From IMG/VR virus record IMGVR_UViG_2534681704_000005, positions 1 to 36,391 of that record: a DNA stretch of 36,391 nt; one strand, 5' to 3'. The notes under the pieces are model-generated. The model was given only the letters and a program-made list of their open reading frames with translations. It was not told the origin of the DNA and searched no databases. The stretch is from a virus. Its lineage: Duplodnaviria; Heunggongvirae; Uroviricota; Caudoviricetes. This document shows, in pieces, positions 6,281 through 32,184 of the stretch (the stretch's first letter is position 1; the number at the start of each line of letters is the position of its first letter). The position numbers and the translations under genes are program-made.

Positions 6281-6484
6281 TTAACCTCCAGATTTCCGCG
6301 CATCTAAAGGCGCATTCTCATTTGGTGTGAACTGAATAGTTGTGCTGATATTGATTAATGCCCCGACACACAAGACTACGCACTCAGAGCAGATAGCAAC
6401 TTCATCTTTTCCGCCTTTGGCGATGATTTTTTTTGCCTGCAGCTCGTTTGCGCCACAAAACGAGCATGTGAAATAACGGTTCAT
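6281..6484 (-). CDS. Stand-alone ClpX-type C4 zinc-finger (ZBD-like) protein, 67 aa
   Basis: MNRYFTCSFCGANELQAKKIIAKGGKDEVAICSECVVLC matches the CSFCG...ICxECVxLC pattern of the ClpX N-terminal zinc-binding domain; first ORF downstream of the predicted pL. Confidence 0.6.
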   Translation of the reverse strand: MNRYFTCSFCGANELQAKKIIAKGGKDEVAICSECVVLCVGALINISTTIQFTPNENAPLDARKSGG

Positions 6485-6578
6485 TTGCGCTCTCTTACAC
6501 ATAGTATTTAACGAATCATCCGGTCATTCATACGCCACCGGCGGCTACTTCGTGGGCGTCCTGCCTGTTCGTTGTTTT

Positions 6579-6594
6579 AACACCTTTAAGTTGT
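6579..6594. promoter_or_regulatory. OL operator-like 16-mer AACACCTTTAAGTTGT (15/16 identical to the OR copy)
   Basis: Near-identical 16-mers on both sides of cI; region rich in ACAAC/GTTGT half-site repeats. Confidence 0.4.
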
Positions 6595-6623
6595 AATTTA
6601 GTTGTGGTTTTGAATGTTGTCAA
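6595..6623 (-). promoter_or_regulatory. Candidate pL (leftward early promoter): -35 TTGACA, 17-bp spacer, -10 TAAATT
   Basis: Perfect -35 hexamer on the minus strand (plus 6618-6623), -10 at plus 6595-6600; conserved operator 16-mer lies at the predicted start site. Confidence 0.4.
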
Positions 6624-6686
6624 CAACTTTATGTGGTTTGAACGAGTAGCCAAGGAGTGCAAGGATTATCAAAAAAAGGAGGTTGT

Positions 6687-7577
6687 ATGGAAGACGCGCT
6701 TTACGCTTTTAATTACACACAGAACCGGGACAAGTTATTTGCTAACTTGATTAGCATCATTGATGGAATCATTGCAGATGGAGTTGTCCGTGAAGAGGAG
6801 GTTCTTTACTTAGATACATGGTTACTTGAAGCAAAGCAGATTATCAATAATGGAGTTATAAAAAGTCTATCAGCACGGGTGTCGGATATTCTTGCGGATG
6901 GAATAATCACATCAGAAGAACGTGATGACCTTAAAAATAGCCTTCTCCAAATACAGAGGGAAATTCTTGATATCCCTGAAATTGATTTTTACTCCAAGGA
7001 TGTAGATGTCCATTTACTTAATGGACTATGTAAAGGATTAATTGCTGATCGGAACTTAACTCAAGAAGAAATAAGATATCTTAATTGGTGGCTTGAGCAA
7101 AATGGAGCTTTGAAGAACAACTACCCAGGAAAAAAACTTTATGCACTTGTAAAGGAAATTCTTAAAGATGGTGTTATTACTGAAGATGAGAGTTTAACTC
7201 TACATAAGGCATTAGTAGACTTCACAGGATGTGACTTGGAAAGTGGGGTGGTGGATGGTTTGGCGACTAGGCTGCCTATTGATGTAGGGGCTTCGATAGA
7301 GTTAGAGGGTAAAACCTATTGTCTTACAGGCACTTTTGTTGCAGGAAAGAGAGCCGTAGTTGAAAATTTGATTAAAAATGCTGGTGGGAACATCAGTAGT
7401 GGAATTACTCAAAAGTTGGATTTTTTAGTAATTGGGACGCTTTCCTCCCGTGATTGGAAATTCTCAAGTCACGGAAGGAAGATCGAAAAGGCTATATCTT
7501 ATAGGGATGATAATGGTGCAAAACTTAAAATTATTTCTGAAGAAATGCTTTTCGATGCATTACCAAGTTCGCGATGA
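6687..7577 (+). CDS. Accessory protein with four TerB-like repeats and a C-terminal BRCT-like domain, 296 aa
   Basis: Strong SD AAGGAGG (6677-6683) before ATG 6687; repeats IADGVVREEE, LADGIITSEER, IADRNLTQEE, LKDGVITEDE; C-terminus GKTYCLTGTF...FLVIG...LKIISEEMLFDAL resembles BRCT; AT-rich; 3' end overlaps the cI stop by 18 bp (convergent). Confidence 0.8.
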   Translation: MEDALYAFNYTQNRDKLFANLISIIDGIIADGVVREEEVLYLDTWLLEAKQIINNGVIKSLSARVSDILADGIITSEERDDLKNSLLQIQREILDIPEIDFYSKDVDVHLLNGLCKGLIADRNLTQEEIRYLNWWLEQNGALKNNYPGKKLYALVKEILKDGVITEDESLTLHKALVDFTGCDLESGVVDGLATRLPIDVGASIELEGKTYCLTGTFVAGKRAVVENLIKNAGGNISSGITQKLDFLVIGTLSSRDWKFSSHGRKIEKAISYRDDNGAKLKIISEEMLFDALPSSR

Positions 7578-8246
7578 CCAGAATACCCTACCTATAACAT
7601 GAATTCTGGCTCGTCTATCTTCAAAGGTGAGTATTTCATCTGGGTACTCATCTTTGTTGAAGCTTCTAAGAATCAAGCCACCGTCAGGTAAGTTGATAAG
7701 TATTTTAACCCTTAGCAATACACCATCTCGTACGGCATAAAGATCGCCATCACGAATAGGAACGGTTTGAGAAATATCAACGGCAACAAGATCTCCATTA
7801 TTGAGAACCGGTAATAAACTGTTCCCCCATATTTTTACGATCTTGGCATTAGATGCACATACGCCAGATTTTCTCAAATCTGCTCTTCTTAATGGAAACC
7901 AGTCAATAGCTGATTCAACTATTTCAGCCAGACATCCGTTACCTGCCGATAACTCGACATCTAAAACAGGAATGTTTACGAAAATATCGGGGTCTAATGC
8001 GGTGCTTTCTGCTTCTTTTACAACAAGATCAGGTATGGATGCGTTGTCTTCAATACCAAGTTGTAACCACTTTTGTGATACACCTAAAACTTTTGCAATT
8101 TCTTTAATTTTGCGCGGTTGTAGAGTTTCGCCATTCTCTATTTTGGCTACAGATTGTTGTGAAAGTCCAATTTTTTCAGCTAGTTGAGCTTGGCTCATGC
8201 CAGCTTTCTCTCTACCTATCTTTAATCGTTCTGCCAGTGTTTTCAC
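7560..8246 (-). CDS. cI: CI-type prophage repressor (XRE HTH + S24 LexA-like autopeptidase)
   Basis: N-terminal HTH (MSQAQLAEKIGLSQQSVAKIENGE), Ala-Gly cleavage site (LSAGNG), Ser (WGNSLLP) and Lys (LLRVK) spaced as in LexA/CI; GTG start with SD GAGGGA; divergent from cro. Confidence 0.9.
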   Translation of the reverse strand: MKTLAERLKIGREKAGMSQAQLAEKIGLSQQSVAKIENGETLQPRKIKEIAKVLGVSQKWLQLGIEDNASIPDLVVKEAESTALDPDIFVNIPVLDVELSAGNGCLAEIVESAIDWFPLRRADLRKSGVCASNAKIVKIWGNSLLPVLNNGDLVAVDISQTVPIRDGDLYAVRDGVLLRVKILINLPDGGLILRSFNKDEYPDEILTFEDRRARIHVIGRVFWSSRTW

Positions 8247-11712: not shown

Positions 11713-12510
11713 ATGAATAATCTGATGGTTATTGATGGTATTGAAGTTCGTCGTGATGCTTATGGGCGTTACAGCCTGAACGATCTGCACAGGGCTGCTG
11801 GTTCTCTGGATAAGCATAAGCCTGCATTCTGGCTCCGCAATGAGCAAACTGAGCGTTTAATAAGCGAGTTGCAGATTTGCAACTCGGTTAATATAGAGCC
11901 AGTTAACGTTATTCGTGGCGGAAATAACCAGGGGACGTATGTCTGCAAAGAACTGGTGTATGCCTATGCAATGTGGATCAGCCCGTCATTCCATCTGAAG
12001 GTGATCCGTACTTTCGATATGGTAACCAGCGCACCGGAAAAATTATCCGGGCAGGCTGCTGACAAGATGCAGGCTGGTGTGATTCTGCTGGACTTTATGC
12101 GTCGGGAGTTAAACCTGTCTAACTCATCTGTGCTTGGTGCCTGTCAGAAACTCCAGGAGGCTGTTGGCTTACCGAATCTGGCACCGCGCTATGCCATTGA
12201 TGCTCCTGCTGACGCGCCTGATGGCTCAAGCCGCCCGACGCTGTCGCTGAGTGCACTGCTGAAGCAGTATGGTATCCGCCTGACAGCTAATCAGGCATAT
12301 CACCAGATGGTGAAACTGGGGATCGTCGAGCAGCGCGAACGATACAGCCGTACCGCGATTAACAACATCAAAAAATTCTGGTCGCTGACGGCGAAAGGCT
12401 GCATGTTCGGCAAGAACATCACCAGTCCTGCAAATCCGCGCGAGACGCAGCCGCACTTCTTCGAATCCCGATTCCCTGAGCTGTTAAAGCTGCTCGATAC
12501 CGTTCATTGA
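11713..12510 (+). CDS. KilA-N domain protein (antirepressor-like)
   Basis: Start at MNNLMVIDGIEVRRD with SD AGAGGAG; N-terminal KilA-N/APSES-like region. Confidence 0.7.
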   Translation: MNNLMVIDGIEVRRDAYGRYSLNDLHRAAGSLDKHKPAFWLRNEQTERLISELQICNSVNIEPVNVIRGGNNQGTYVCKELVYAYAMWISPSFHLKVIRTFDMVTSAPEKLSGQAADKMQAGVILLDFMRRELNLSNSSVLGACQKLQEAVGLPNLAPRYAIDAPADAPDGSSRPTLSLSALLKQYGIRLTANQAYHQMVKLGIVEQRERYSRTAINNIKKFWSLTAKGCMFGKNITSPANPRETQPHFFESRFPELLKLLDTVH

Positions 12511-12511
12511 G

Positions 12512-13507
12512 GTGACCGTGAGAGCACTACTGACCCCTGAAATTGCCCCGCGTATGGGGATCGTATTGTTCAGACCAGGTTCAGAGCTGATGCCCCTGTT
12601 TATGCAGGGGCGTGTCCTGCTGGAGCCTGAGCCGGAACGTTATTCATCTTTCGCCAGTGGTGCCGTTCCGGCGGCATCACAACCGCTGGCGGATGATCCT
12701 GCCGTTCGGGCCGTGTTCCGCAATGAGGCAGTGATCCGTCGTGCTGGTGGAGTGGAATGTCTTGAAAGCTGGTTACTTCGTGAAAAAGGCTGCCAGTGGC
12801 CTCATTCCGACTGGCACAGCGAGAACATGACCACAATGCGACACGCGCCGGGCGCAATCCGTCTGTGCTGGCACTGCGATAACCAGCTGCGCGATCAGTT
12901 CACGGAACGGCTGGAATCAATGGCAACGGATAACTGTGCCCGCTGGGTGTTATCTGTTGTGCGCCGTGATCTCGGTTTTGATGATAGTCACGTTGTGACA
13001 ATGCCGGAACTGTGCTGGTGGCTGGTTCGTAATGACCTGGCTGATGCCTTACCGGAAAGTGCAGCCCGTAAGGCACTGAGATTACCGAAGCCTGTTGTGC
13101 CGTCTGTCACCCGGGAGAGTGACCTTGTTCCTTCGGTTCCTGCCACCAGCATTATCCAGGATAAAGCGAAAAAGGTGCTGGCGCTGAAAGTGGATCCAGA
13201 GTCGCCGGAGTCTTTTATGTTACGCCCAAAACGTCGCCGCTGGGTTAATGAAAAGTACACGCGCTGGGTTAAGACACAGCCGTGTGCATGTTGTGGAAAG
13301 CCTGCTGATGATCCCCATCACCTGATAGGCCACGGTCAGGGTGGAATGGGTACAAAAGCGCATGACCTCTTTGTGTTGCCTTTGTGCAGAAAGCATCACG
13401 ACGAGCTGCATGCGGATACCGTGGCATTTGAAGAGATGTATGGCTCCCAGCTGGAGCTGATATTTCGTTTTATCGATCGTGCGCTGGCAACAGGCGTACT
13501 GGCGTAA
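12512..13507 (+). CDS. Phage protein with C-terminal Cys/His-rich motif (DUF968-like, tentative)
   Basis: C-terminal CACCGKPADDPHHLIGHG...CRKHHDELH; GTG start assumed, exact start uncertain. Confidence 0.55.
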   Translation: MTVRALLTPEIAPRMGIVLFRPGSELMPLFMQGRVLLEPEPERYSSFASGAVPAASQPLADDPAVRAVFRNEAVIRRAGGVECLESWLLREKGCQWPHSDWHSENMTTMRHAPGAIRLCWHCDNQLRDQFTERLESMATDNCARWVLSVVRRDLGFDDSHVVTMPELCWWLVRNDLADALPESAARKALRLPKPVVPSVTRESDLVPSVPATSIIQDKAKKVLALKVDPESPESFMLRPKRRRWVNEKYTRWVKTQPCACCGKPADDPHHLIGHGQGGMGTKAHDLFVLPLCRKHHDELHADTVAFEEMYGSQLELIFRFIDRALATGVLA

Positions 13508-13521
13508 GTGGAGAACTCTAA

Positions 13522-14100
13522 ATGATTAATCCTTCTGAAATTGGCAAAACGGGTGAAATGGTTCGTCTTCGTACTCTGGAAAGTATCTGGGTTCAGGGTA
13601 AGCTCCGCATGTGGGGACGCTGGTCTTATATCGGCGGTGGTAGTGGTGGGAACATGTTTAACCAGCTACTGGCATCTGGAAAAATTACCAAAACGGCAAT
13701 TAAAGAAGCGCTACGCCGGATGAAAAAAGCGGGTATCAGCAAACCAGAGCTGGAAGCGTTTTTCAAAGAGATTCAGGAAGGGCAGAATAAAAGCGGTCTG
13801 GCGTTCTGTACCGATGAGGAAGCGCTGACCATCAACGCTGTACTCAGCGATGTCCTTGTGCAGTCAGGACATAAGAATTTATACGCTCTTATTGAAGATC
13901 GTTATATCAAACGCCTTAGCAAAAAGGCAATGGCAAGAGACCTAAATAAAAAGCATCCTGAATGGTGTTTGCGAACCTGTGAAAGCCGGATTGATGTTTG
14001 GCTAAATGTAGCAGAATCGATGCTATACAAGCCAATGTGTGATGCATTTGGCACAAATGGCGACAGATTCCGCTTGAATAGTTGCGCGGAAAGTGCTTGA
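13522..14100 (+). CDS. Late-gene antiterminator Q-like protein, 192 aa
   Basis: Position immediately upstream of terminators and lysis genes; SD GTGGAGAA; assignment mostly positional. Confidence 0.55.
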   Translation: MINPSEIGKTGEMVRLRTLESIWVQGKLRMWGRWSYIGGGSGGNMFNQLLASGKITKTAIKEALRRMKKAGISKPELEAFFKEIQEGQNKSGLAFCTDEEALTINAVLSDVLVQSGHKNLYALIEDRYIKRLSKKAMARDLNKKHPEWCLRTCESRIDVWLNVAESMLYKPMCDAFGTNGDRFRLNSCAESA

Positions 14101-14150
14101 ATTATGTTAAGCTCAGAGCGTTAAAGCGAACTGATGCAACAGAACAAATA

Positions 14151-14175
14151 AAAACCCGCCATTGTGCGGGTTTTT
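14151..14175. terminator. Bidirectional rho-independent terminator (AAAACCCGC-CATTGT-GCGGGTTTT plus T-run)
   Basis: GC stem with U-tracts on both strands; 50 nt after Q stop and 7 nt after the stop of the convergent moron. Confidence 0.7.
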
Positions 14176-14181
14176 GCATAT

Positions 14182-14661
14182 CTAGAGCAGACCTATAGCG
14201 CCACCGGCAATAGCAGTAAGTAAAGGATGTTCTGCTAACTTTCTTAGCAGCCCCTTTGCTTCTTCTTTCTGCTGTGGCGTACCCTGAGAGCTATTTATTA
14301 AGTTATTCAGCGTCTCGATGCTATTGGTAATCTCCTGACGGTTATGATCTCCAATCTGTACATTCCCTCCGTGAATGTTGATTTGCTGAGAAGAAATAGT
14401 TGGTTGTATCTTTTTGGGGCCAACCTTGAGTTGGAAGTGTGGGCCAAAACCGCCAATGCTAGTGTCGTAAAAATTAGCTTTATAAATTTCTTTATGTTCT
14501 TCCTTACCGTTTGGAAGGAGTCGAACAACAGTATCCCCGTCATCGATGTCGGCCATTTGGTCGTTTACGATAATTGTATCACCTGCAAACTTGGCCTTAT
14601 ACGGGCCGCATCTGCTGCCATCACGTTTTAAGATGTAGGCATCGTCTTTAGCTGTAAACAT
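14182..14661 (-). CDS. Accessory (moron) protein of unknown function, 159 aa, hydrophobic C-terminal tail
   Basis: Opposite strand to the late operon, SD GGAG 5 nt before ATG, flanked by terminators; ends LLTAIAGGAIGLL; AT-rich. Confidence 0.7.
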   Translation of the reverse strand: MFTAKDDAYILKRDGSRCGPYKAKFAGDTIIVNDQMADIDDGDTVVRLLPNGKEEHKEIYKANFYDTSIGGFGPHFQLKVGPKKIQPTISSQQINIHGGNVQIGDHNRQEITNSIETLNNLINSSQGTPQQKEEAKGLLRKLAEHPLLTAIAGGAIGLL

Positions 14662-14773
14662 TTCTACTCCTGTGTAAAGTCATAGCCAGAAAACGCTGAC
14701 GCTAAACATTTACCGTTAAATGTCAGGGAAGTATGAGATATAGGTCAAAAAAGACAATTTAATGAAACATAAG

Positions 14774-14799
14774 GCCTCGCAATTAAGCGGGGCTTTTTT
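14774..14799 (+). terminator. Rho-independent terminator (GCCTCGC-AATTAA-GCGGGGC plus T6), candidate tR'
   Basis: 7-bp stem including one G-U pair followed by TTTTTT, upstream of the holin gene. Confidence 0.55.
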
Positions 14800-14913
14800 C
14801 ATTTCAGGCTCACGGGAATCATCCGCTACGTGCTTTGGTGATAAATACAGCCCGAGAAACCTGATACACCTTTCATCATTAAGCGCCATCCGAACTATCG
14901 GAGGTGAGAGACC

Positions 14914-15255
14914 ATGAAAATGCATAACGATCCTCATTCCTGGCCTGACTTACTTGAATTGTTTCAGAGCTGGTGGCGTGGAGACACACCGCTGGGCGCA
15001 GTGATTATGTCGATTGTTATGGCTGGTTTACGTATTGCCTATTTTGGCGGTGGTGGTGGCTGGAAGCGAAAAACACTCGAAATTCTACTCTGTGGCGCTC
15101 TGACGCTGACTTTTGCATCCGCTCTTGAGTATGTCGGATGGCCTAAATCACTATCTGTTGCCATTGGTGGTGGAGTGGGGCTGATCGGTGTCGATGCTAT
15201 TCGTGGGGCTGCAATGCGAGTAATCGGTAACAAATTTGGTGGCTCTAAGGAGTAA
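14914..15255 (+). CDS. Holin (lambda S-like, dual-start MKM motif)
   Basis: Strong SD GGAGGTGA; three predicted hydrophobic segments and a charged C-terminus; immediately upstream of the endolysin. Confidence 0.8.
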   Translation: MKMHNDPHSWPDLLELFQSWWRGDTPLGAVIMSIVMAGLRIAYFGGGGGWKRKTLEILLCGALTLTFASALEYVGWPKSLSVAIGGGVGLIGVDAIRGAAMRVIGNKFGGSKE

Positions 15256-15258
15256 TTT

Positions 15259-15735
15259 ATGCAGGTACTAAATTCCCAGCGTAAAGCTTTCCTTGATATG
15301 GTGGCTTGGTCAGAAGGAACGGATAACGGGCGACAACCGACACGTAACCACGGTTATGATGTTATTGTTGGTGGCAAACTGTTCACTGATTACTCCGATC
15401 ACCCTCGCAAACTTGTCACGCTAAACCCCAAACTCAAATCAACAGCCGCCGGACGTTACCAGCTTCTTTCACGCTGGTGGGATGCTTACCGTAAACAGCT
15501 TGGCCTGAAAGATTTTTCTCCAGAAAGCCAGGACGCTGTAGCTCTGCAGCAGATTAAAGAGCGTGGCGCTTTACCGATGATTGACCGCGGCAATATTCGT
15601 CAGGCAATCGACCGTTGCAGCAATATCTGGGCGTCGTTACCAGGTGCAGGTTACGGTCAGTATGAACATAAAATCGGCGACCTGATTGCCCGATTTAAAG
15701 AGGCTGGTGGGGTAGTAAATGAAGCTGAGATATAA
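15259..15735 (+). CDS. R: Endolysin, lambda R-type lytic transglycosylase
   Basis: Near-identical over long stretches to lambda R as recalled (NSQRKAFLDMVAWSEGTDNGRQPTRNHGYDVIVGG...). Confidence 0.92.
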   Translation: MQVLNSQRKAFLDMVAWSEGTDNGRQPTRNHGYDVIVGGKLFTDYSDHPRKLVTLNPKLKSTAAGRYQLLSRWWDAYRKQLGLKDFSPESQDAVALQQIKERGALPMIDRGNIRQAIDRCSNIWASLPGAGYGQYEHKIGDLIARFKEAGGVVNEAEI

Positions 15736-16111
15736 GCTGGTTATTGTTGCCTTCTTTGTTACCGTCATTGGTTCCTTCATCTGGTCTGCCGGGCATTACT
15801 ACAGCAAATATCAGCACGAAAAGGAGCGTGCTGATGAGGCTGTACGAAATGCTGAATCGGCAACTGCCATTACCAATAACGTCCTGCAATCAATACAAAT
15901 CGTAAATACAGCACTGGAGGCTAGCCAGCATGCAAAACAACAAATCGCACTGGAGTCACAGAGAACCCAGGAAGATATCAAAGTGGCTGTTGCGAATGAT
16001 GATTGCGCTTCACGTCCTGTGCCTGCTGCCGCTACTGACCGGTTGCGGAAGTACGCGGACAGTTTACGTGAGCACCCCAGTAGCACCACTGTCAACCACC
16101 CTAACTTCTGA
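15719..16111 (+). CDS. i-spanin (Rz-like)
   Basis: N-terminal transmembrane segment then coiled-coil-like region; overlaps the endolysin stop. Confidence 0.7.
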   Translation: MKLRYKLVIVAFFVTVIGSFIWSAGHYYSKYQHEKERADEAVRNAESATAITNNVLQSIQIVNTALEASQHAKQQIALESQRTQEDIKVAVANDDCASRPVPAAATDRLRKYADSLREHPSSTTVNHPNF

Positions 16112-16244
16112 AACACCGATTCCAATTATACCTAGTCCACTGACATATGGTGCTAGCCTAGACCTGAATGCAAGTTTGTTATCTGCATTAGGGCAGTGCA
16201 ATAGAGATAAAAAGGCTATCCGCAGTATAAACAATGCTAGATGA
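15996..16244 (+). CDS. o-spanin lipoprotein (Rz1-like), embedded in and extending past Rz in another frame
   Basis: Signal peptide with lipobox LLTGC followed by a Pro-rich mature region; classic Rz/Rz1 overlap. Confidence 0.6.
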   Translation: MMIALHVLCLLPLLTGCGSTRTVYVSTPVAPLSTTLTSETPIPIIPSPLTYGASLDLNASLLSALGQCNRDKKAIRSINNAR

Positions 16245-16322
16245 AGATTTTAATTTAAATTGAAGATGCCTATTACTAGACATCTTTATAATTTATGCTC
16301 AAACCAAAGTGGATTTGTAATA

Positions 16323-16697
16323 TTAAAGACTATTTAGGAGACTCTGAATAATAGGCCATAAAGTTAATGTGTTTGCACCAGCTGAGTAAAATCGCTCCAT
16401 CAGTTGTAGAGGTGTTGATGACTGATTAAACTTGATATCATTTAAAATGTCGTATATTTCTTGTAGCTTCTCTGCACCCAGCTTATCGTTAATTTCACTT
16501 AAGTTATTTTGTATGGCGATTTCTGCTTCTTTTATAAGCCGAACTGTTTCTGCTGAGTAATGAATATTGTTGGAAAGAAAAGTATTAGCTGAATCAATAA
16601 TTTCATAACCAACTTCAGCACCAAATGATTTGTTTCCAATCATTTTGATGTTTTCGCATCCCTTAATGCGATAAGCAACGGTTTTCTTTTCACTCAT
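16323..16697 (-). CDS. Accessory (moron) protein of unknown function, 124 aa
   Basis: Antisense to the late operon in a visibly AT-rich block between Rz1 and the HNH gene; no recognisable domain. Confidence 0.6.
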   Translation of the reverse strand: MSEKKTVAYRIKGCENIKMIGNKSFGAEVGYEIIDSANTFLSNNIHYSAETVRLIKEAEIAIQNNLSEINDKLGAEKLQEIYDILNDIKFNQSSTPLQLMERFYSAGANTLTLWPIIQSLLNSL

Positions 16698-16824
16698 GTT
16701 ATAACCTGTGTTTAGTTACTTTTATTAGAACCTTGTTATCAGATTTTTCTCATAAAGGAAAGAGTGAAAGAGAAAAATGAATCTCTTTTGTCAAATATGT
16801 CTATCAGATTAAAGAGAGTATTTT

Positions 16825-17175
16825 ATGCCAGCACTGATACCTAGAGCCTGCCGTGTTCGCGGCTGCCACCATACCACGACTGACCCGTCAGGCTATTGCG
16901 AAAGCCACAAAAGCGAAGGCTGGAAGCAATACAAGCCAGGCCAGTCCCGTCATCAGCGCGGCTACGGTTCGAAGTGGGACAGTATCCGCGCGCGTGTCCT
17001 GAAGCGTGACAAAGGCCTGTGTCAGTTATGTCTGCGTGCTGGTGTGGTGCGTGAGGCGAAAACCGTTGACCATATCATCCCTAAAGCGCATGGTGGCACT
17101 GATGCCGACAGTAATCTGCAGAGCCTGTGCTGGCCGTGTCATAAGGCGAAGACGGCCCGTGAACGGTTAAAGTGA
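16825..17175 (+). CDS. HNH endonuclease (packaging-associated)
   Basis: Cys/His pattern (CHHTTTDPSGYCESH...HIIPKAHGG...CWPCH); directly upstream of the terminase genes as in HK97-like cos phages. Confidence 0.85.
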   Translation: MPALIPRACRVRGCHHTTTDPSGYCESHKSEGWKQYKPGQSRHQRGYGSKWDSIRARVLKRDKGLCQLCLRAGVVREAKTVDHIIPKAHGGTDADSNLQSLCWPCHKAKTARERLK

Positions 17176-17201
17176 TAATAATTCTCAACTGTCTGAGGGG
17201 A

Positions 17202-17261
17202 GGGGCGGGTCAAATCTCTGTGACCTGACGTCTTCCGGACTGCCCGCCCCATCGTTTTTTT
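17202..17261. other. GC-rich inverted repeat GGGGCGGG...CCCGCCCC plus T7 tract; candidate cos-region element or terminator
   Basis: 8-bp perfect arms 33 bp apart between HNH and terS; left arm recalls the lambda cohesive-end GGGCGGCGACC. Confidence 0.3.
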
Positions 17262-17300
17262 ATACCCGCGAAAAATGAAATTTAACCTGGAGTGCCGCAT

Positions 17301-17786
17301 ATGGCTGGAACGGCGGGGCGTTCCGGGCGTCGCCCCAAGCCAACGGCGCGCAAGGCGCTGGCCGGAAACCCCGGCAAGCGAGCCCTGAATAAAGATGAAC
17401 CTGTTTTTACGCCCATCAAAGGTGTTGAGCCACCGGAGTGGTTCGCTGAAGAAGATCTCCCTCTCGCCACGATCATGTGGCAACTGACAACCAAAGAACT
17501 CTGCGGTCAGGGCCTGCTGTGCGTGACTGACCTGGCGGTACTTGAGCGGTGGTGTGTGGCCTATGAGTTCTGGCGACGTGCCGTGAAAAATATTGCCAGA
17601 CAGGGTAACACCATCACCGGTGCAATGGGTGGCATGGTCAAAAATCCGGAGCTGACCGCCAAAAAAGAACAGGAGTCCGAGATGAGCAGCACGGGGGCAA
17701 TGCTCGGACTCGACCCCAGCAGCCGCCAGCGTCTGATTGGCCTGGCGGGGAAGAAGAAAGCCACTAACCCGTTTCTGACAATCTGA
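17301..17786 (+). CDS. Terminase small subunit
   Basis: ATG 17301 with SD GGAG 8 nt upstream; basic N-terminus; precedes the large subunit. Confidence 0.8.
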
Positions 17787-17799
17787 AAATCATCGAATC

Positions 17800-19533
17800 A
17801 TGAGCCGGAAATCTTACCCCAACGTAAATGCTGCCAATCAGTATGCCCGGGATGTCGTGCGCGGAAAGATTGTGGCCTGCCAGTTTGTGATTCAGGCCTG
17901 CCAGCGCCATCTTGATGACCTGATGGCGGAAAAAAGTAAGTCGTTTCGTTACCGCTTCGACAAGGATCTGGCTGAACGGGCCGCCAAATTTATTCAGCTG
18001 TTGCCGCACACCAAGGGTGAGTGGGCATTTAAACGGATGCCCATCACGCTGGAGCCGTGGCAGCTCTTTGTGATCTGCTGCGCGTTTGGCTGGGTCAATA
18101 AAGGCTCCCGGCTGCGCCGCTTCCGTGAGGTGTATACCGAAATCCCCCGTAAGAACGGCAAATCGGCAATCTCTGCCGGTGTCGCCCTGTATTGTTTTGC
18201 CTGTGATAACGAGTTTGGCGCGGAAGTGTATTCCGGTGCCACGACAGAGAAACAGGCGTGGGAAGTCTTTCGCCCGGCGCGACTGATGTGTAAACGCACA
18301 CCCATGCTGACGGAAGCGTTCGGGATTGAGGTTAACGCCTCAAACATGAACCGTCCGGAGGATGGCGCGCGGTTTGAACCGCTGATCGGCAACCCCGGTG
18401 ATGGCTCATCACCCCACTGTGCGGTGGTGGATGAATATCACGAGCATGCCACCGATGCGCTTTATACCACAATGCTTACCGGGATGGGGGCGCGACGTCA
18501 GCCACTGATGTGGGCCATCACCACCGCCGGGTACAACATTGAGGGGCCGTGCTACGACAAGCGGCGGGAAGTCATCGAGATGCTCAACGGCTCGGTGCCT
18601 AACGATGAACTGTTCGGGATCATCTATACCGTTGATGAAGGTGACGACTGGACCGACCCGCAGGTGCTGGAAAAAGCCAATCCAAATATTGGCGTGTCGG
18701 TTTATCGCGAATTTTTGTTAAGTCAGCAGCAGCGTGCGAAAAATAACGCCCGTCTGGCAAACGTCTTTAAAACAAAACACCTCAATATCTGGGTGTCGGC
18801 GCGTTCGGCGTATTTCAACCTGGTGAGCTGGCAGAGCTGCGAGGATAAATCACTGACCCTTGAGCAGTTCGAGGGGCAGCCGTGCATTCTGGCCTTTGAC
18901 CTGGCGCGTAAGCTGGATATGAACAGCATGGCGCGACTTTATACCCGCGAGATTGACGGTAAAACGCATTACTACAGTGTGGCCCCGCGCTTCTGGGTAC
19001 CGTATGACACGGTGTACAGCGTCGAGAAAAATGAAGATAGACGGACAGCCGAACGCTTTCAGAAATGGGTGGAAATGGGCGTCCTGACCGTTACCGATGG
19101 TGCAGAGGTGGATTATCGCTACATCCTCGAGGAGGCCAAAGCGGCGAACAAAATCAGCCCGGTCAGTGAGTCACCCATCGACCCCTTCGGGGCGACCGGG
19201 CTGTCACATGACCTTGCTGATGAAGATCTGAATCCCGTCACTATCGTCCAGAACTTCGCCAATATGTCCGATCCGATGAAAGAGCTGGAAGCAGCGATTG
19301 AATCGGGACGCTTTCATCATGACGGCAATCCCATCATGACCTGGTGTATCGGCAATGTGGTCGGCAAAAACATGCCAGGTAACGATGATGTGGTGAAGCC
19401 CGTCAAAGAGCAGGCGGAAAACAAAATCGATGGTGCAGTTGCGCTGATTATGGCGGTTGGCAGAGCCATGCTGTACGAGAAAGAAGACACGCTGTCTGAC
19501 CACATTGAGTCCTATGGGATCCGCTCGCTTTAA
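17800..19533 (+). CDS. Terminase large subunit
   Basis: 577-aa ORF with ATPase and nuclease layout, between terS and portal. Confidence 0.9.
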
Positions 19534-27270: not shown

Positions 27271-29095
27271 ATTTGAGCTTAAGGCGTTGATCACCGGTGT
27301 CGACAGGCTTTCTCCCGCGCTGTCGAAAATGCAAAAGAAAATCCGGGGATTTAAACGCCAGGCGGAAGAAGCGTCACAGGGTGGGCTGGCGCTTGGTGGC
27401 GGACTGGCAGCGGGTCTGACGCTTTCCCTGAAATCTTATGCTGATCAGGAAAACGCCGCCACCGGGCTGAAAGTCGCCATGATGGATGCGAACGGCGAGG
27501 TCGGAAAGAGCTTTCAGGACATCAATAAACTGGCTATTGGCCTGGGTAACCAGCTACCCGGTACAACGGCTGATTTCCAGAACATGATGCAGATGCTGGT
27601 GCGTCAGGGGATCCCGGCAGAAAATATTCTTGGCGGTGTGGGTAAAGCGACAGCTTATCTTGCGGTACAACTGAAAAAAACACCGGAAGCGGCTGCTGAG
27701 TTTGCTGCAAAGATGCAGGATGCTACCGGAACGGCGTCAGAAGACATGATGGGGCTGTTCGACACTATCCAGAAGGCGTTTTATCTGGGTGTTGACGATA
27801 CCAACATGTTGTCCTTCTTCACTAAAACCAGCTCTGTTCTGAAGATGGTGAACAAGGACGGTCTTCAGGCTGCACAGAGCCTTGCCCCCATCAGCGTCAT
27901 GATGGATCAGATGGGGATGAACGGGGAGTCGGCAGGTAACGCCCTGCGAAAAGTTATCCAGTCCGGATTAAGCGTTAAGAAAATCAGGGACGTCAATAAA
28001 ATCATGGCCCGCCAGAAACTCGGGGTACAGCTCGATTTTACTGACGGCAAAGGAAGTTTTGGCGGTCTTGATAACATGTTCAGGCAACTGGCAAAGCTGC
28101 GAAAACTGACCGACGTTAAGCGAACAGGTGTACTTAAGGCAATATTTGGTGATGATGCCGAAACTCTTCAGGTGGTCAATGCACTAATCGATAAAGGAAA
28201 GGATGGCTACGATCAGATCCAGCAGAAGATGAATAAACAGGCCAGCCTGAATAAACGTGTTCAGGCACAGCTTGGTACGCTGTCCAACCTGTGGGAGGCA
28301 ATGACAGGGACCGCAACTAACGGCCTTGCGGCTATTGGCGGCGCATTTTCTGGTGACGCTAAAAATATCACACAATGGCTGGGGGAGTTGGGGGAGAAAT
28401 TCACGAAGTTTGCGGATGAAAATCCCCGGGTTATTCGCGGCGTCGTCGGGCTTGCTGCCGGTCTTGCGATTCTGAAACTGGGATTGATGGGCGTTGGCGG
28501 TGCCATCAGTATTGTCAGCAGGATTATGTCGATGACGCCGATTGGCATGATTGCGACGGCGATTGCTCTGGCTGCGGGATTAATTATCACTAACTGGGAT
28601 GTTGTCGGACCTTATTTCAAGAAGCTCTGGGAAACCATTGGTCCTTATTTTGAGGCAGGTTGGGAACTTCTGAAGAAGGTTTTTGCCTGGTCGCCGCTGG
28701 GGATGGTGATCAATAACTGGGGACCGGTTGTTAAGTGGTTTCAGGATATGTGGGACAAGCTGAAGCCAATTATTGAGTGGTTTACCGACAGTTCCGGTGA
28801 CACGGTCGATGCCATTAACTCTGCGCAGTGGGGCGCGGGTGCTTATGATGCTTATGGGACGGGAATACCGGCGCGGGGATACACACCTTATCCGGCGGTG
28901 GATCCGGCTCAGTCAAACAACGCCTCCGATGCCACAGGCTCGAATCCCTTCATGATTAACAAAGCTTCTGTGCCAAAAGTTGATGGTGAGATCAAGGTCT
29001 CTTTTGTGAATTCGCCTCCGGGTATGCGGGTTATGGAAACGCGATCCAGCGGTTTTGATGTCAGCCATGATGTTGGCTATACGCGGTTCAGGTAG
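27263..29095 (+). CDS. Tail tape measure protein
   Basis: 610-aa ORF with Ala/Gly-rich helical and hydrophobic segments; canonical position. Confidence 0.85.
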   Translation: MAEFELKALITGVDRLSPALSKMQKKIRGFKRQAEEASQGGLALGGGLAAGLTLSLKSYADQENAATGLKVAMMDANGEVGKSFQDINKLAIGLGNQLPGTTADFQNMMQMLVRQGIPAENILGGVGKATAYLAVQLKKTPEAAAEFAAKMQDATGTASEDMMGLFDTIQKAFYLGVDDTNMLSFFTKTSSVLKMVNKDGLQAAQSLAPISVMMDQMGMNGESAGNALRKVIQSGLSVKKIRDVNKIMARQKLGVQLDFTDGKGSFGGLDNMFRQLAKLRKLTDVKRTGVLKAIFGDDAETLQVVNALIDKGKDGYDQIQQKMNKQASLNKRVQAQLGTLSNLWEAMTGTATNGLAAIGGAFSGDAKNITQWLGELGEKFTKFADENPRVIRGVVGLAAGLAILKLGLMGVGGAISIVSRIMSMTPIGMIATAIALAAGLIITNWDVVGPYFKKLWETIGPYFEAGWELLKKVFAWSPLGMVINNWGPVVKWFQDMWDKLKPIIEWFTDSSGDTVDAINSAQWGAGAYDAYGTGIPARGYTPYPAVDPAQSNNASDATGSNPFMINKASVPKVDGEIKVSFVNSPPGMRVMETRSSGFDVSHDVGYTRFR

Positions 29096-29194
29096 TGTAC
29101 AAAATGATTAATGTGTTTTTGTCTGGCATAATTTGGGTTTTCAGCTTTAAGTAGTTAATATAATCATTCCTTACAAATGATTGAAGGGATGATT

Positions 29195-29689
29195 ATGCGT
29201 ATCTTTGTTTTTTTTATATCTGCACTTTTATCTTTTAACTTGGCTGCGGAAGAGTGTAAGTTCAGCTTTAATGAGTCAGAATTAATCTCTTCTATAGGTA
29301 TTGCACCAGTTAAGCAAGAGATAATAAAGGATGAAGGAATAACTAAGCGGCAATATGAATTCAGAAGAGAATTATCTTCTGAAGAAATGCTTAGTGATGA
29401 CGCTGATGAAAAATATGAGCCGCAGTTTTATATATCTGTTTATAATCCATCATGCCCACAAAAGGTTATTGTTTGGTTTTTCAAAGACAATAAAAACACA
29501 ATGGATTTAAGTAATGAGGTCCTTGCTGGTAGAGCGTTCAAGTATTTAACTGGTGTTAATGAAAGTATTTTTGAAAATAAAATGAAAAAGTTTTTAAAGG
29601 TACAGTCATTTGAATCTTTTGATGAAAGGACAGATTCTAAATTTATAAAGAGTGGTAATATTTATTCCATTGATGTTCAACTCAGATAG
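29195..29689 (+). CDS. Accessory (moron) secreted protein with Sec signal peptide, 164 aa
   Basis: Start MRIFVFFISALLSFNLAA|EE with SD GAAGGGA; strongly AT-rich; inserted between tape measure and baseplate genes and followed by a terminator-like hairpin. Confidence 0.7.
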   Translation: MRIFVFFISALLSFNLAAEECKFSFNESELISSIGIAPVKQEIIKDEGITKRQYEFRRELSSEEMLSDDADEKYEPQFYISVYNPSCPQKVIVWFFKDNKNTMDLSNEVLAGRAFKYLTGVNESIFENKMKKFLKVQSFESFDERTDSKFIKSGNIYSIDVQLR

Positions 29690-29708
29690 TAATTAAAAAT
29701 ATTAGGTT

Positions 29709-29764
29709 CCCGCCACATCTTCTGCGATGTAAATAACTGACAAAGCAGATTTGGCGGGTTTTTT
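29709..29764 (+). terminator. Terminator-like structure (CCCGCCA...TGGCGGG plus T6) after the moron
   Basis: 7-bp GC arms enclosing an inner ACATC/GATGT stem, followed by TTTTTT. Confidence 0.45.
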
Positions 29765-29779
29765 GTATCCGGAGTTTAT

Positions 29780-31108
29780 ATGACGTGGAAAGACAGGCTT
29801 CAGGATGCGTCATTTCGCGGCGTACCGTTTAAGGTTGAAGAAGAAAGTGCGGGAACCGGTCGCCGTGTGGAAACACACGAATATCCGAACCGCGACAAGC
29901 CCTATACCGAAGATCTGGGAAAAGTCACTTTCCGCCCGTCCATCACAGCTTATGTGGTGGGAGATGACTGCTTTGACCAGCGCGATCGCCTGATTGAAGC
30001 GCTGAATAAACCCGGTCCCGGCACGCTTGTCCACCCGACATATGGTGAGCTGAAAGTCTGTGTTGACGGGGAAGTTCGGGTCAGCACATCGAAAAGTGAA
30101 GGGCGTATTGTCCGCTTTGACCTGAAGTTTGTCGAAGCAGGAGAACTCTCTTACCCCACATCAGGTGCGGCGACGGCGCAGACGCTGATGTCATCCTGTT
30201 CTGCACTGGATGACTGCATCAGTGACAGCTTCAGCGGTTTCAGTATCGATGGTGTGGCGGATTTTGTGCAGAACGACGTTATCGGTAATGCCAGCATAAT
30301 GCTGGGGTATGTTTCTGATGCGATGAAAGTGGTGGATTCTGCCGTATCGGATGCCGCCAGGCTGTTGCAGGGGGATATCTCGGTACTTCTGCCGCCGCCA
30401 TCGTCAGGCAAAAATTTCGTTGAGCAGGTGCAGAAAATGTGGCGTACCGGGAAACGCCTTTATGGTAACGCCAGCGACCTGGTCACCATGATCAAAACGC
30501 TTTCCGGTGTCAGCCTCGGCAGCGATCTGCAACCGCGCGGCGTCTGGAAAACGGACAGTAAAACCACCGCCACGGCGACGCAGCAGCGTAACGTGGTTGC
30601 CAGCACCCTTCGTACGACCGCAATCAGCGAAGCGGCGTATGCCGTCACCCGATTGCCTGCGCCAACAACTTCCGCGGTGATGCAGAATTCCGCAGTGGGG
30701 CAGGCAACAACACCTGCGCAGAGCACTGGCTGGCCTTCCGTCACGCATCCGGCACTGAACAATGCACCGGCGGTGAAAAACACAGTTGACCTGCCGACGT
30801 GGGAAGAACTGACTGACATTCGCGACACACTGAATACGGCAATTGATAAGGAGTTGTCCCGTACAACCAGTGATGCGCTGTTTCTGGCGCTGCGCCGGGT
30901 GAAAGCAGATCTGAATGCGGATATCAACACGCGCCTTGAACAGTCTGCACGGATCATTCAGCGCACACCGGATGAGGTTTTACCCGCGCTGGTGCTGGCG
31001 GCGACCTGGTTTGATAACGCGGCGCGTGACGCGGACATTATCCGGCGTAATGCCATTACGCATCCCGGCTTTGTGCCGGTGATCCCTCTGAAGGTGCCAG
31101 TGCAATGA
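29780..31108 (+). CDS. DNA circulation protein (Mu gp43-like)
   Basis: N-terminus MTWKDRLQDASFRGVPFKVEEES matches the Mu DNA-circulation N-terminal signature as recalled. Confidence 0.8.
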   Translation: MTWKDRLQDASFRGVPFKVEEESAGTGRRVETHEYPNRDKPYTEDLGKVTFRPSITAYVVGDDCFDQRDRLIEALNKPGPGTLVHPTYGELKVCVDGEVRVSTSKSEGRIVRFDLKFVEAGELSYPTSGAATAQTLMSSCSALDDCISDSFSGFSIDGVADFVQNDVIGNASIMLGYVSDAMKVVDSAVSDAARLLQGDISVLLPPPSSGKNFVEQVQKMWRTGKRLYGNASDLVTMIKTLSGVSLGSDLQPRGVWKTDSKTTATATQQRNVVASTLRTTAISEAAYAVTRLPAPTTSAVMQNSAVGQATTPAQSTGWPSVTHPALNNAPAVKNTVDLPTWEELTDIRDTLNTAIDKELSRTTSDALFLALRRVKADLNADINTRLEQSARIIQRTPDEVLPALVLAATWFDNAARDADIIRRNAITHPGFVPVIPLKVPVQ

Positions 31109-32184
31109 ACGATAACGTCACGCTACGGGTAAATGGCCGGGAGTGGAATGGCTGGACATCGGTGCGCATCGGTGCCGGTGTTGAACGACTGGCGCGGGAT
31201 TTCAGTGTGGAGATCACCCGCCAGTGGCCGGGAGATGAGGGTATCACCACGCTTCAGCCGCGCATTAAAAACGGTTCAAAAGTGGAAGTGCTGATTGGTG
31301 ATGAGCTGGTGATCACCGGCTGGGTGGAGGCGACGCCCGTTCGTTACGATGCCCGTTCGGTCAGCACCGGTATTGCCGGACGCAGTCTAACCGCTGATCT
31401 GATTGACTGTGCAGCCGAACCGACACAGTTTAACGGACGATCGCTGGTACAGATTGCGCAGGCGCTTGCTGCGCCCTTCGGCATTGAGGTGGTGAACAAC
31501 GGTGCGCCGTCGGGTGTTATTCCTGACGTCCAGCCTGATCACGGTGAAACGGTGATTGAGGTAATCAACAAAATACTCGGTCAGCAGCAGGCACTGGCTT
31601 ACGACGACCCGCACGGCAGGCTGGTGATTGGCGGTATTGGCTCAACGCGGGCACATACCGCGCTGGTACTTGGGGAAAACATCCTTTCCTGTGATACGGA
31701 GAAGAGTATCCGGGAGCGGTTTTCAGTTTACCAGGTGGCGGGGCAGCGTGCCGGAAACGACGATGATTTCGGTGAGGCCACCACCACCGCGCTGCGGGCC
31801 CGCACAGAGGACGCATTTATTGCCCGTTACCGTCCGATGTATATCAGGCAGACAGGGCAGGCCACGGGGGCAGGCTGTATTGCGCGTGCTGACTTTGAAG
31901 CCCGACAACGGGCGGCGCGGACGGATGAAACCACCTATGTGGTGCAGGGCTGGCGACAGGGTAACGGTACGCTGTGGCAGCCCAACCAGCGGGTGATTGT
32001 CTTTGATCCGGTCTGTGGTTTCGACAATACCGAACTGCTTGTTTCGGAAGTCACGTTTACTCAGGACCAGAACGGCACCCTGACGGAAATCCGTGTCGGC
32101 CCGCCTGATGCTTATCTGCCTGAACCCGAAGCCCCCGGCGCGCGAAAAAAGAAAAAAGCCAGAGTACAGGAGGACCCGTTCTGA
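31105..32184 (+). CDS. Baseplate hub protein (Mu gp44 / gpD-like)
   Basis: Position and size within the Mu-like baseplate block; ATGA-coupled. Confidence 0.7.
   Translation: MNDNVTLRVNGREWNGWTSVRIGAGVERLARDFSVEITRQWPGDEGITTLQPRIKNGSKVEVLIGDELVITGWVEATPVRYDARSVSTGIAGRSLTADLIDCAAEPTQFNGRSLVQIAQALAAPFGIEVVNNGAPSGVIPDVQPDHGETVIEVINKILGQQQALAYDDPHGRLVIGGIGSTRAHTALVLGENILSCDTEKSIRERFSVYQVAGQRAGNDDDFGEATTTALRARTEDAFIARYRPMYIRQTGQATGAGCIARADFEARQRAARTDETTYVVQGWRQGNGTLWQPNQRVIVFDPVCGFDNTELLVSEVTFTQDQNGTLTEIRVGPPDAYLPEPEAPGARKKKKARVQEDPF

Follow-up and report, generated by a model that had tools for sequence, protein, structure and literature searches.

Lodged between the lysis genes and the packaging genes of a lambdoid prophage, the gene that we name ORF124 is very probably a horizontally mobile, single-gene moron which encodes a functional cytoplasmic protein. 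It belongs to a small family that is undescribed in the libraries or the literature that we searched, and this holds as well for the combination of folds predicted for its product and for the strict conservation of its position. The kind of element, a moron in the slot of the bor and tai genes, is itself textbook, and the lysis/packaging junction is a recognised cargo hotspot. The invariant position of the family is the most informative result of this analysis: in every context that was recovered, the homologue of ORF124 is antisense to the late genes and converges, tail-to-tail, on the final lysis-module gene. The explanation that appears best to us as a whole (a gene expressed in the lysogen, damped by convergent late transcription after induction, and protecting its host cell against other phages) has a probability of about 0.4 once the functional inference is included. 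The sequence-only reading that had drawn attention to this region missed the hotspot, the predicted fold and the fixed position and orientation of the family.

Prophage setting and cargo cassette

The window, by which we mean the whole stretch of DNA that was analysed (36,391 nucleotides, positions 1 to 36,391 of IMG/VR record IMGVR_UViG_2534681704_000005), is a lambdoid prophage next to proA, integrated at a tRNA-Thr gene (1369-1444). The element hosting the cassette thus belongs to the lambdoid prophages that carry a contractile-tail module: HK97-type head genes and contractile-tail genes are found downstream of TerL, all of them on the plus strand. The features that matter for what follows are these:

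1459-2622: integrase, from the gene order of the window
7560-8246: CI-like repressor, from the gene order of the window
13522-14100 (+): Q-type antiterminator
14914-15255 (+): lambda-type holin
15259-15735 (+): GH24 endolysin
15719-16111 (+): Rz spanin
15999-16244 (+): Rz1/LysC o-spanin, last lysis gene (Pfam LysC, 2.4e-14; PHROG Rz-like spanin; coordinates of RefSeq lysC transferred from locus L001, the prophage of E. coli APEC 102026)
16229-16822: variable one-gene cargo cassette (moron) at the lysis/packaging junction (homology breakpoints, GC about 31%, alternative cargo)
16263-16286 (-): hairpin past the ORF124 stop, which probably ends or stabilises the antisense transcript (inverted repeat and folding)
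16323-16697 (-): ORF124, 124 aa, ATG at 16697 and stop at 16323 (ORF call and RefSeq CDS)
16705-16709 (-): Shine-Dalgarno-like ACAGG, ending 7 nt before the ATG (read from the sequence)
16733-16762 (-): conserved non-coding block located 36-65 nt ahead of the ORF124 start codon, minus-strand reading CTTTCCTTTATGAGAAAAATCTGATAACAA
16825-17175 (+): HNH endonuclease, first gene of the packaging block (Pfam HNH, 4.2e-16; PHROG 144)
17292-17786 (+): P27-type TerS
17800-19533 (+): TerL

Rz1/LysC is the convergent neighbour of ORF124, with 78 nt between the two stop codons, and on the other side the start codon of the HNH gene directly adjoins the cassette. Related prophages share the backbone up to about 16228, which falls within the 3' end of Rz1, and share it again from 16822-16825, the start of the HNH gene. 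Matches to the lysis and packaging DNA on either side occur in 2959 genomes, and the insert is present in only 15 of these; a 651-nt region is recovered at at least 98.8% identity in 15 of 5426 complete E. coli genomes, on the chromosome every time. The same Rz1-HNH junction is empty in LWY6, where 26 nt separate the two genes; one relative has two antisense hypothetical genes there, one has a GrlR-family gene in the sense orientation, and further relatives have, again in the sense orientation, an S1 peptidase, a DUF2441 gene or other hypothetical genes. One related prophage holds an antisense iss, the bor homologue, at exactly this place. The S1-family peptidase of locus L037 (E. coli TW10828; 1237-2097, plus strand) matches the PADLOC defence candidate PDC-S45 (E 1.5e-40). 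The alternative cargo that was checked is AT-rich too, at 38-41% GC. The closest matching prophage, that of APEC 102026, keeps both the lysis cassette and ORF124 at 99.7% identity; it is broken by two copies of ISKpn26 and by an IS1203 in the tape-measure gene (11974-16434 and 28808-31953), and this IS-riddled prophage is evidently defective. Comparison with related prophages, suggested at the outset, has thus revealed both presence/absence and exchange of cargo, and the idea of a horizontally acquired accessory gene is borne out by deviant composition, by homology breakpoints and by the empty or otherwise occupied junctions.

Morons have been described as added DNA of deviant GC content which comes with its own expression signals (PMC3594210). 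Presence or absence at the junction and a deviant GC content are both observed here; as for a promoter and a terminator of its own, the cassette displays a 3' hairpin lacking a U-tract and a conserved upstream block of 30 nt, and no consensus promoter was found.

Several other places in the window deserve mention in their own right. A second antisense, moron-like ORF of 159 aa lies between Q and the holin gene (14182-14661, minus strand; phrog_16834, E 7.6e-62, unknown function). On one side of it stands a bidirectional hairpin that follows Q (14150-14175), on the other a plus-strand terminator-like site located before the holin gene (14771-14796). Comparison led us to reject this ORF as a relative of ORF124, and a beta-helix-like ORF of 96 aa that occupies the Q-holin slot of locus L025 reached a probability of 12% when compared with ORF124. 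Between the tape-measure and DNA-circularisation genes, an AT-rich island (about 28871-30000) harbours an ORF of 170 aa (29177-29689, plus strand) in the most AT-rich part of the window, where GC falls to its 580-nt minimum of 30.3%; it has no Pfam or PADLOC match, and its slot is another cargo hotspot, since the APEC 102026 prophage has an antisense 'OB-fold protein' there. Beside the CI-like repressor, in the AT-rich island 6441-8100, an ORF of 306 aa (6657-7577, plus strand) has a BRCT domain at its C-terminus (Pfam, 1.4e-6) and weakly matches the PADLOC candidate PDC-S48 (2.7e-7); it is possible to see it as a candidate defence gene expressed in the lysogen. Finally, between the HNH gene and TerS, where an HK97-type phage would be expected to have its cos site, inspection by eye discloses at about 17203-17262 an inverted repeat, GC-rich and with a long loop (GGGGCGGG...CCCGCCCC), and after it a run of seven T.

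Composition and coding evidence

An open reading frame of 124 aa on the minus strand between Rz1 and the HNH gene had been proposed from the letters alone, and its coordinates are confirmed; RefSeq agrees, with an identical ORF annotated as a hypothetical protein (WP_040091768.1). A literature search with this accession returned no match. The segment had also been called conspicuously AT-rich, and the computed composition upholds this: GC is 31.0% over 16245-16824, for a window mean of 51.1% (standard deviation 6.2%, 580-nt windows). Within ORF124 itself GC amounts to 33.9%, and GC at third codon positions to 28%, against 41-65% in the adjacent genes. This bias accompanies the gene wherever it is found, as the close homologues all remain at 32-34% GC within loci of about 50% GC.

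When 16229-16822 was shuffled 5000 times with its dinucleotides preserved, only 0.1% of the shuffled sequences contained an ORF of 124 codons or more. Between ORF124 and its homologues at 69% identity, pN is 0.19 and synonymous change has reached saturation (pS 0.77-0.80); for a closer pair of homologues, L002 and L007, dN/dS is 0.21-0.25. Judged by these comparisons, ORF124 is a real gene, with purifying selection acting on the protein, so that the protein itself would matter and not the RNA alone. Lack of conservation would have spoken against the gene; the homologues are conserved, and constrained in this way.

Protein family and predicted fold

The family is small. A word-indexed search of 5.8 billion proteins retrieved only seven clusters (at 90% identity), which are 56-98% identical to ORF124, all unnamed, and all 122-125 aa long save for one fragment of 86 aa. 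An exhaustive profile search of 1.8 billion representatives gave 26 matches, mostly of 120-130 aa and of 21-51% identity, so that the homologues span 98-21% identity; the contexts of three borderline longer matches (P0025, P0027 and P0029) were uninformative. Pfam, PHROGs, NCBIfam and PADLOC contain no match at threshold, either for ORF124 or for 23 family members, and neither an enzyme nor a regulator signature is seen in ORF124 with these four libraries. ORF124 has no Pfam match even at E<=1, and no match at E<=1 in PADLOC-DB v2.0.0 (a library of 2023), where the 23 family members yield scattered single matches, all with E>0.003. The PDB, searched both by sequence and by profile, returned no match, and ORF124 resembles no solved structure of known function. 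With blastn and tblastn, no match was found among 50,697 GenBank phages or the PLSDB plasmids, and we saw no member of the family in defence islands, satellites or plasmids; a pattern scan of genome contigs gave no confirmed relatives, and Rfam nothing significant in or near the segment.

The product of ORF124 is acidic (pI 5.15). It has no signal peptide, no transmembrane segment and no N-terminal hydrophobic segment, its highest 19-residue hydropathy being 0.86, at residue 103. The input given to AlphaFold matters: with seven sequences pLDDT was 57, and with an alignment of 23 sequences it rose to 87.6, with a pTM of 0.75. The resulting model has six short strands in residues 7-47, which make two three-stranded coils of about 22 residues each, followed by a bundle of five helices at residues 49-123. 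As modelled, residues 7-47 have the look typical of a right-handed PbH1 beta-helix. This reading is supported by sub-threshold NosD or Beta_helix matches in 8 of the 23 family members, and by matches of the family profile to repeats within giant proteins (1174-3161 aa). We can therefore retain the early statement that the protein has no recognisable motif insofar as nothing matches at threshold, and must amend it in that its relatives do give these faint matches. Similarly, the homology and fold searches that had been recommended brought homologues and a confident prediction, and no counterpart in a library or in the PDB.

Among close homologues, conservation is highest in the C-terminal third (85%, compared with about 69%), which bears the conserved motif S-x-G-A-N-x-L-T-x-W-P. 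This third is always the most hydrophobic stretch of the protein, and it reaches a transmembrane-like hydropathy in several distant members. In P0029, a borderline profile match (E 6e-4) aligned over residues 2-44 only, a region resembling the N-terminal part precedes a clear transmembrane helix.

Fixed position and orientation

The tail-to-tail placement holds at 69% identity, at 52, 39, 36 and 30%, at 31, 25 and 21%, and at about 22% (BLASTP). The distance between the stop codon of the homologue and that of the lysis-module gene varies between 15 and 360 nt; in some relatives it is only 15-20 nt, so that there the transcripts must overlap the lysis-module gene. The lysis cassettes which accompany the family are diverse (lambda S/GH24/Rz-Rz1, holin_8/holin_3_7/GH19, GH108, Phage_lysozyme/Phage_lysis), and so is the far flank, where we find HNH and P27-TerS, lambda GpA terminase with assorted small genes, Terminase_2/3, or an integrase. 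Other cargo at this junction goes in either orientation, so that the fixed orientation has to be understood as a property of the ORF124 family, not of the slot.

In GH19-type cassettes a conserved gene of 76 aa, on the late strand, lies between the lysis genes and the ORF124 homologue (L002, 6418-6648, minus; L022, 6473-6703, minus). We considered and rejected a two-gene module: this neighbour is absent from the window, and it is about 90% identical where the morons beside it are only about 40% identical, and we therefore assign it to the lysis module, not to the moron.

Expression signals and late transcription

A hairpin had been noticed just past the stop codon, and it is indeed present at 16263-16286, 36 nt beyond that codon, with a stem of 10 bp and a loop of 4 nt. 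Its folding energy is -13.3 kcal/mol (z -5.9) in the RNA sense of ORF124. Read as late transcript it reaches only -8.8 kcal/mol, because one G-U pair turns into a C-A mismatch. The hairpin lacks a canonical U-tract and was not picked up by the terminator scan. The 69%-identical homologues (L002, L003, L007 and L014) have a different and stronger hairpin at the same place after the stop, and the loci at 21% identity (L008 and L011) have none better than shuffles; the 3' hairpin, then, recurs among close relatives.

Upstream of the gene, the block of 30 nt at 16733-16762 is about 90% identical to that of the 69%-identical homologues, despite the saturation of synonymous sites in the coding sequence. 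Conservation of this kind implies a constrained element acting in cis, which might be a promoter, an operator or part of a 5'UTR. A consensus scan detected no sigma-70 promoter of consensus quality upstream of ORF124 in this copy. A scan with a position weight matrix found good extended -10 elements in L002, L008, L011, L022 and L025 and only weak candidates in the window; the element of L002 is not conserved in the window copy. An AT-rich cassette such as this one (31% GC) may be silenced by H-NS in E. coli.

On the opposite strand, no plus-strand promoter-like site was found in 13900-17400, the interval between Rz1 and TerS included, so that the HNH gene, the terminase genes and all the structural genes appear to need a Q-modified polymerase that runs head-on through the cassette. 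It had been surmised that transcription of the late operon passes through ORF124 in antisense, and the plus-strand disposition of Q, the lysis genes, the HNH gene, the terminase genes and the structural genes, with no plus-strand promoter-like site between Rz1 and TerS, concurs.

Comparison with known systems

The junction has precedents. The bor gene of lambda and iss of E. coli occupy the same slot, after Rz/Rz1 and before the packaging genes, in the same antisense orientation, and they too are single-gene, AT-rich cargo; bor is expressed from the lysogen (PMC7067206). Their product, however, is an outer-membrane lipoprotein that confers serum resistance, whereas that of ORF124, devoid of signal peptide or lipobox, is predicted to be cytoplasmic. 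We rejected a Bor/Iss lipoprotein as the identity of ORF124, given the absence of a Pfam or NCBIfam match and of an N-terminal hydrophobic segment.

Another precedent is TaiEcA of phi80, which the lysogen produces, and of which there is less once Q is expressed, in an arrangement that has been termed a non-contiguous operon (PMC11364771). In the annotated genome of phi80 its gene, orf63, is antisense between Rz/Rz1 and cos, that is, like ORF124, between lysis genes and cos/packaging and inside the Q-dependent late unit. TaiEcA is also a small soluble protein that lacks a catalytic motif, and we may take it as a working model for the regulation and the role of ORF124. The two differ in length (204 aa against 124 aa); phi80 has an adjacent anti-Tai gene on the late strand, whereas no such partner is evident beside ORF124; and PICIs and P4-like satellites carry Tai genes too, whereas the ORF124 family is seen only in one prophage slot. 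Homology of the two was rejected, as hhalign of the family profile against TaiEcA gave a probability of 0.1% (E 0.46).

Gp15 of HK97, which is responsible for superinfection exclusion (PMC3594210), is likewise a single small moron in the late operon of an HK97-type phage, directed against incoming phages. It differs in its place, which is the tail operon, and in being an inner-membrane protein, whereas ORF124 has no transmembrane segment; the two are compared here by description. PbH1 repeat proteins (Pfam Beta_helix PF13229 and NosD PF05048), lastly, share the coil architecture predicted for residues 7-47 of ORF124, which differs from them in having only two coils, fused to a helical bundle, and no enzyme or adhesin context.

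Proposed role and rival explanations

We propose that ORF124 would be transcribed leftward from its own signals in the lysogen, as far as the hairpin, and that upon induction the Q-antiterminated late transcription would run head-on through the gene and damp it, following the logic of the non-contiguous operon. That the repressed prophage expresses ORF124, and that convergent late transcription damps it, seems to us about as likely as not; expression in the lysogen is put forward by analogy with lambda bor (PMC7067206) and phi80 taiEcA (PMC11364771). That the protein would then protect the lysogen against other phages is a tentative suggestion, which we hold with low confidence and at less than even odds. 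It might do so by binding a protein of the incoming phage, as an inhibitor of assembly or entry; alternatively, it might combine a sensor domain with a hydrophobic effector at the C-terminus. What leads us to defence is the precedent of the slot (Tai, and the PDC-S45 candidate at the same junction), the absence of a catalytic or secretion signature, and the pattern of a variable N-terminal part with a conserved C-terminal part. Counting against it, ORF124 resembles no known defence protein, its family was not seen in the defence islands, satellites or plasmids in which portable defence genes are usually encountered as well, and other cargo of this slot (iss/bor) is not anti-phage. A more elaborate version, doubtful as it stands, would have ORF124 found an undescribed family of single-protein anti-phage systems, working by superinfection exclusion or abortive infection: a variable mini beta-helix would sense or bind a phage component, the conserved hydrophobic C-terminal helix would be the effector, and the obligatory tail-to-tail placement would allow Q-dependent late transcription to switch the gene off on induction, thereby avoiding self-targeting.

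The same slot invites us to consider a factor of lysogenic conversion or host fitness, apart from defence, which would, like Bor/Iss, modulate some host process for the lysogen. Related prophages hold iss/bor in this very place, bor is expressed in lambda lysogens (PMC7067206), and ORF124 has been kept at 99.7% identity in the evidently defective, IS-riddled prophage of APEC 102026; yet the lack of signal peptide, lipobox or transmembrane segment leaves no room for a Bor-like action at the surface, there is no enzyme or regulator signature, and a gene carried by 15 of 5426 complete E. coli genomes is rare, all of which makes this reading unlikely. The invariant adjacency to the last lysis-module gene, maintained over many types of cassette while the other flank varies, might rather speak for a function linked to lysis, in which the protein or the convergent transcript would tune or guard the lysis cassette, for example against leaky spanin or late expression, or in the timing of lysis. 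Overlap of transcripts is unavoidable in those relatives where the stop codons are 15-20 nt apart, and there is a precedent in STnc6030 of BTP1, an antisense RNA within prophage late genes that acts in trans (PMC7067206). Against this, the same lysis genes are found in close relatives whose junction is empty or differently filled, and the cassette is therefore dispensable for lysis; in the window copy the hairpin precedes Rz1, so that overlap is not needed; and purifying selection at the protein level points away from an RNA acting alone. We consider such a function distinctly unlikely.

It may also be asked whether the gene has any function at all. A junction that tolerates many unrelated inserts in both orientations, between conserved phage genes where recombination can move cargo, could well shelter a selfish or near-neutral hitchhiker, and the rarity of the family would fit; long-term purifying selection down to about 22% identity and the conserved orientation argue for function, however, and make this highly improbable. 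As for a chance ORF in AT-rich spacer DNA, which the lack of a database family match might have suggested, it is refuted by the length of the frame (0.1% of shuffles), by a dN/dS well below 1 and by the confident structure prediction. Protection of the lysogen against other phages, under the control of convergent late transcription, is the reading that we favour, with low confidence.

Significance

It is established that morons which lambdoid prophages carry in their lysis/packaging slot can supply virulence factors (bor/iss) as well as anti-phage factors (Tai). Were it to have no phenotype, ORF124 would be one more hypothetical moron. As it is, with a predicted fold that is both confident and unusual and with its strikingly constant placement, it constitutes a well-defined single-gene candidate for screens of prophage defence or of lysogenic conversion, and a natural test case for the question of whether head-on late transcription is a general off-switch for genes of this kind.
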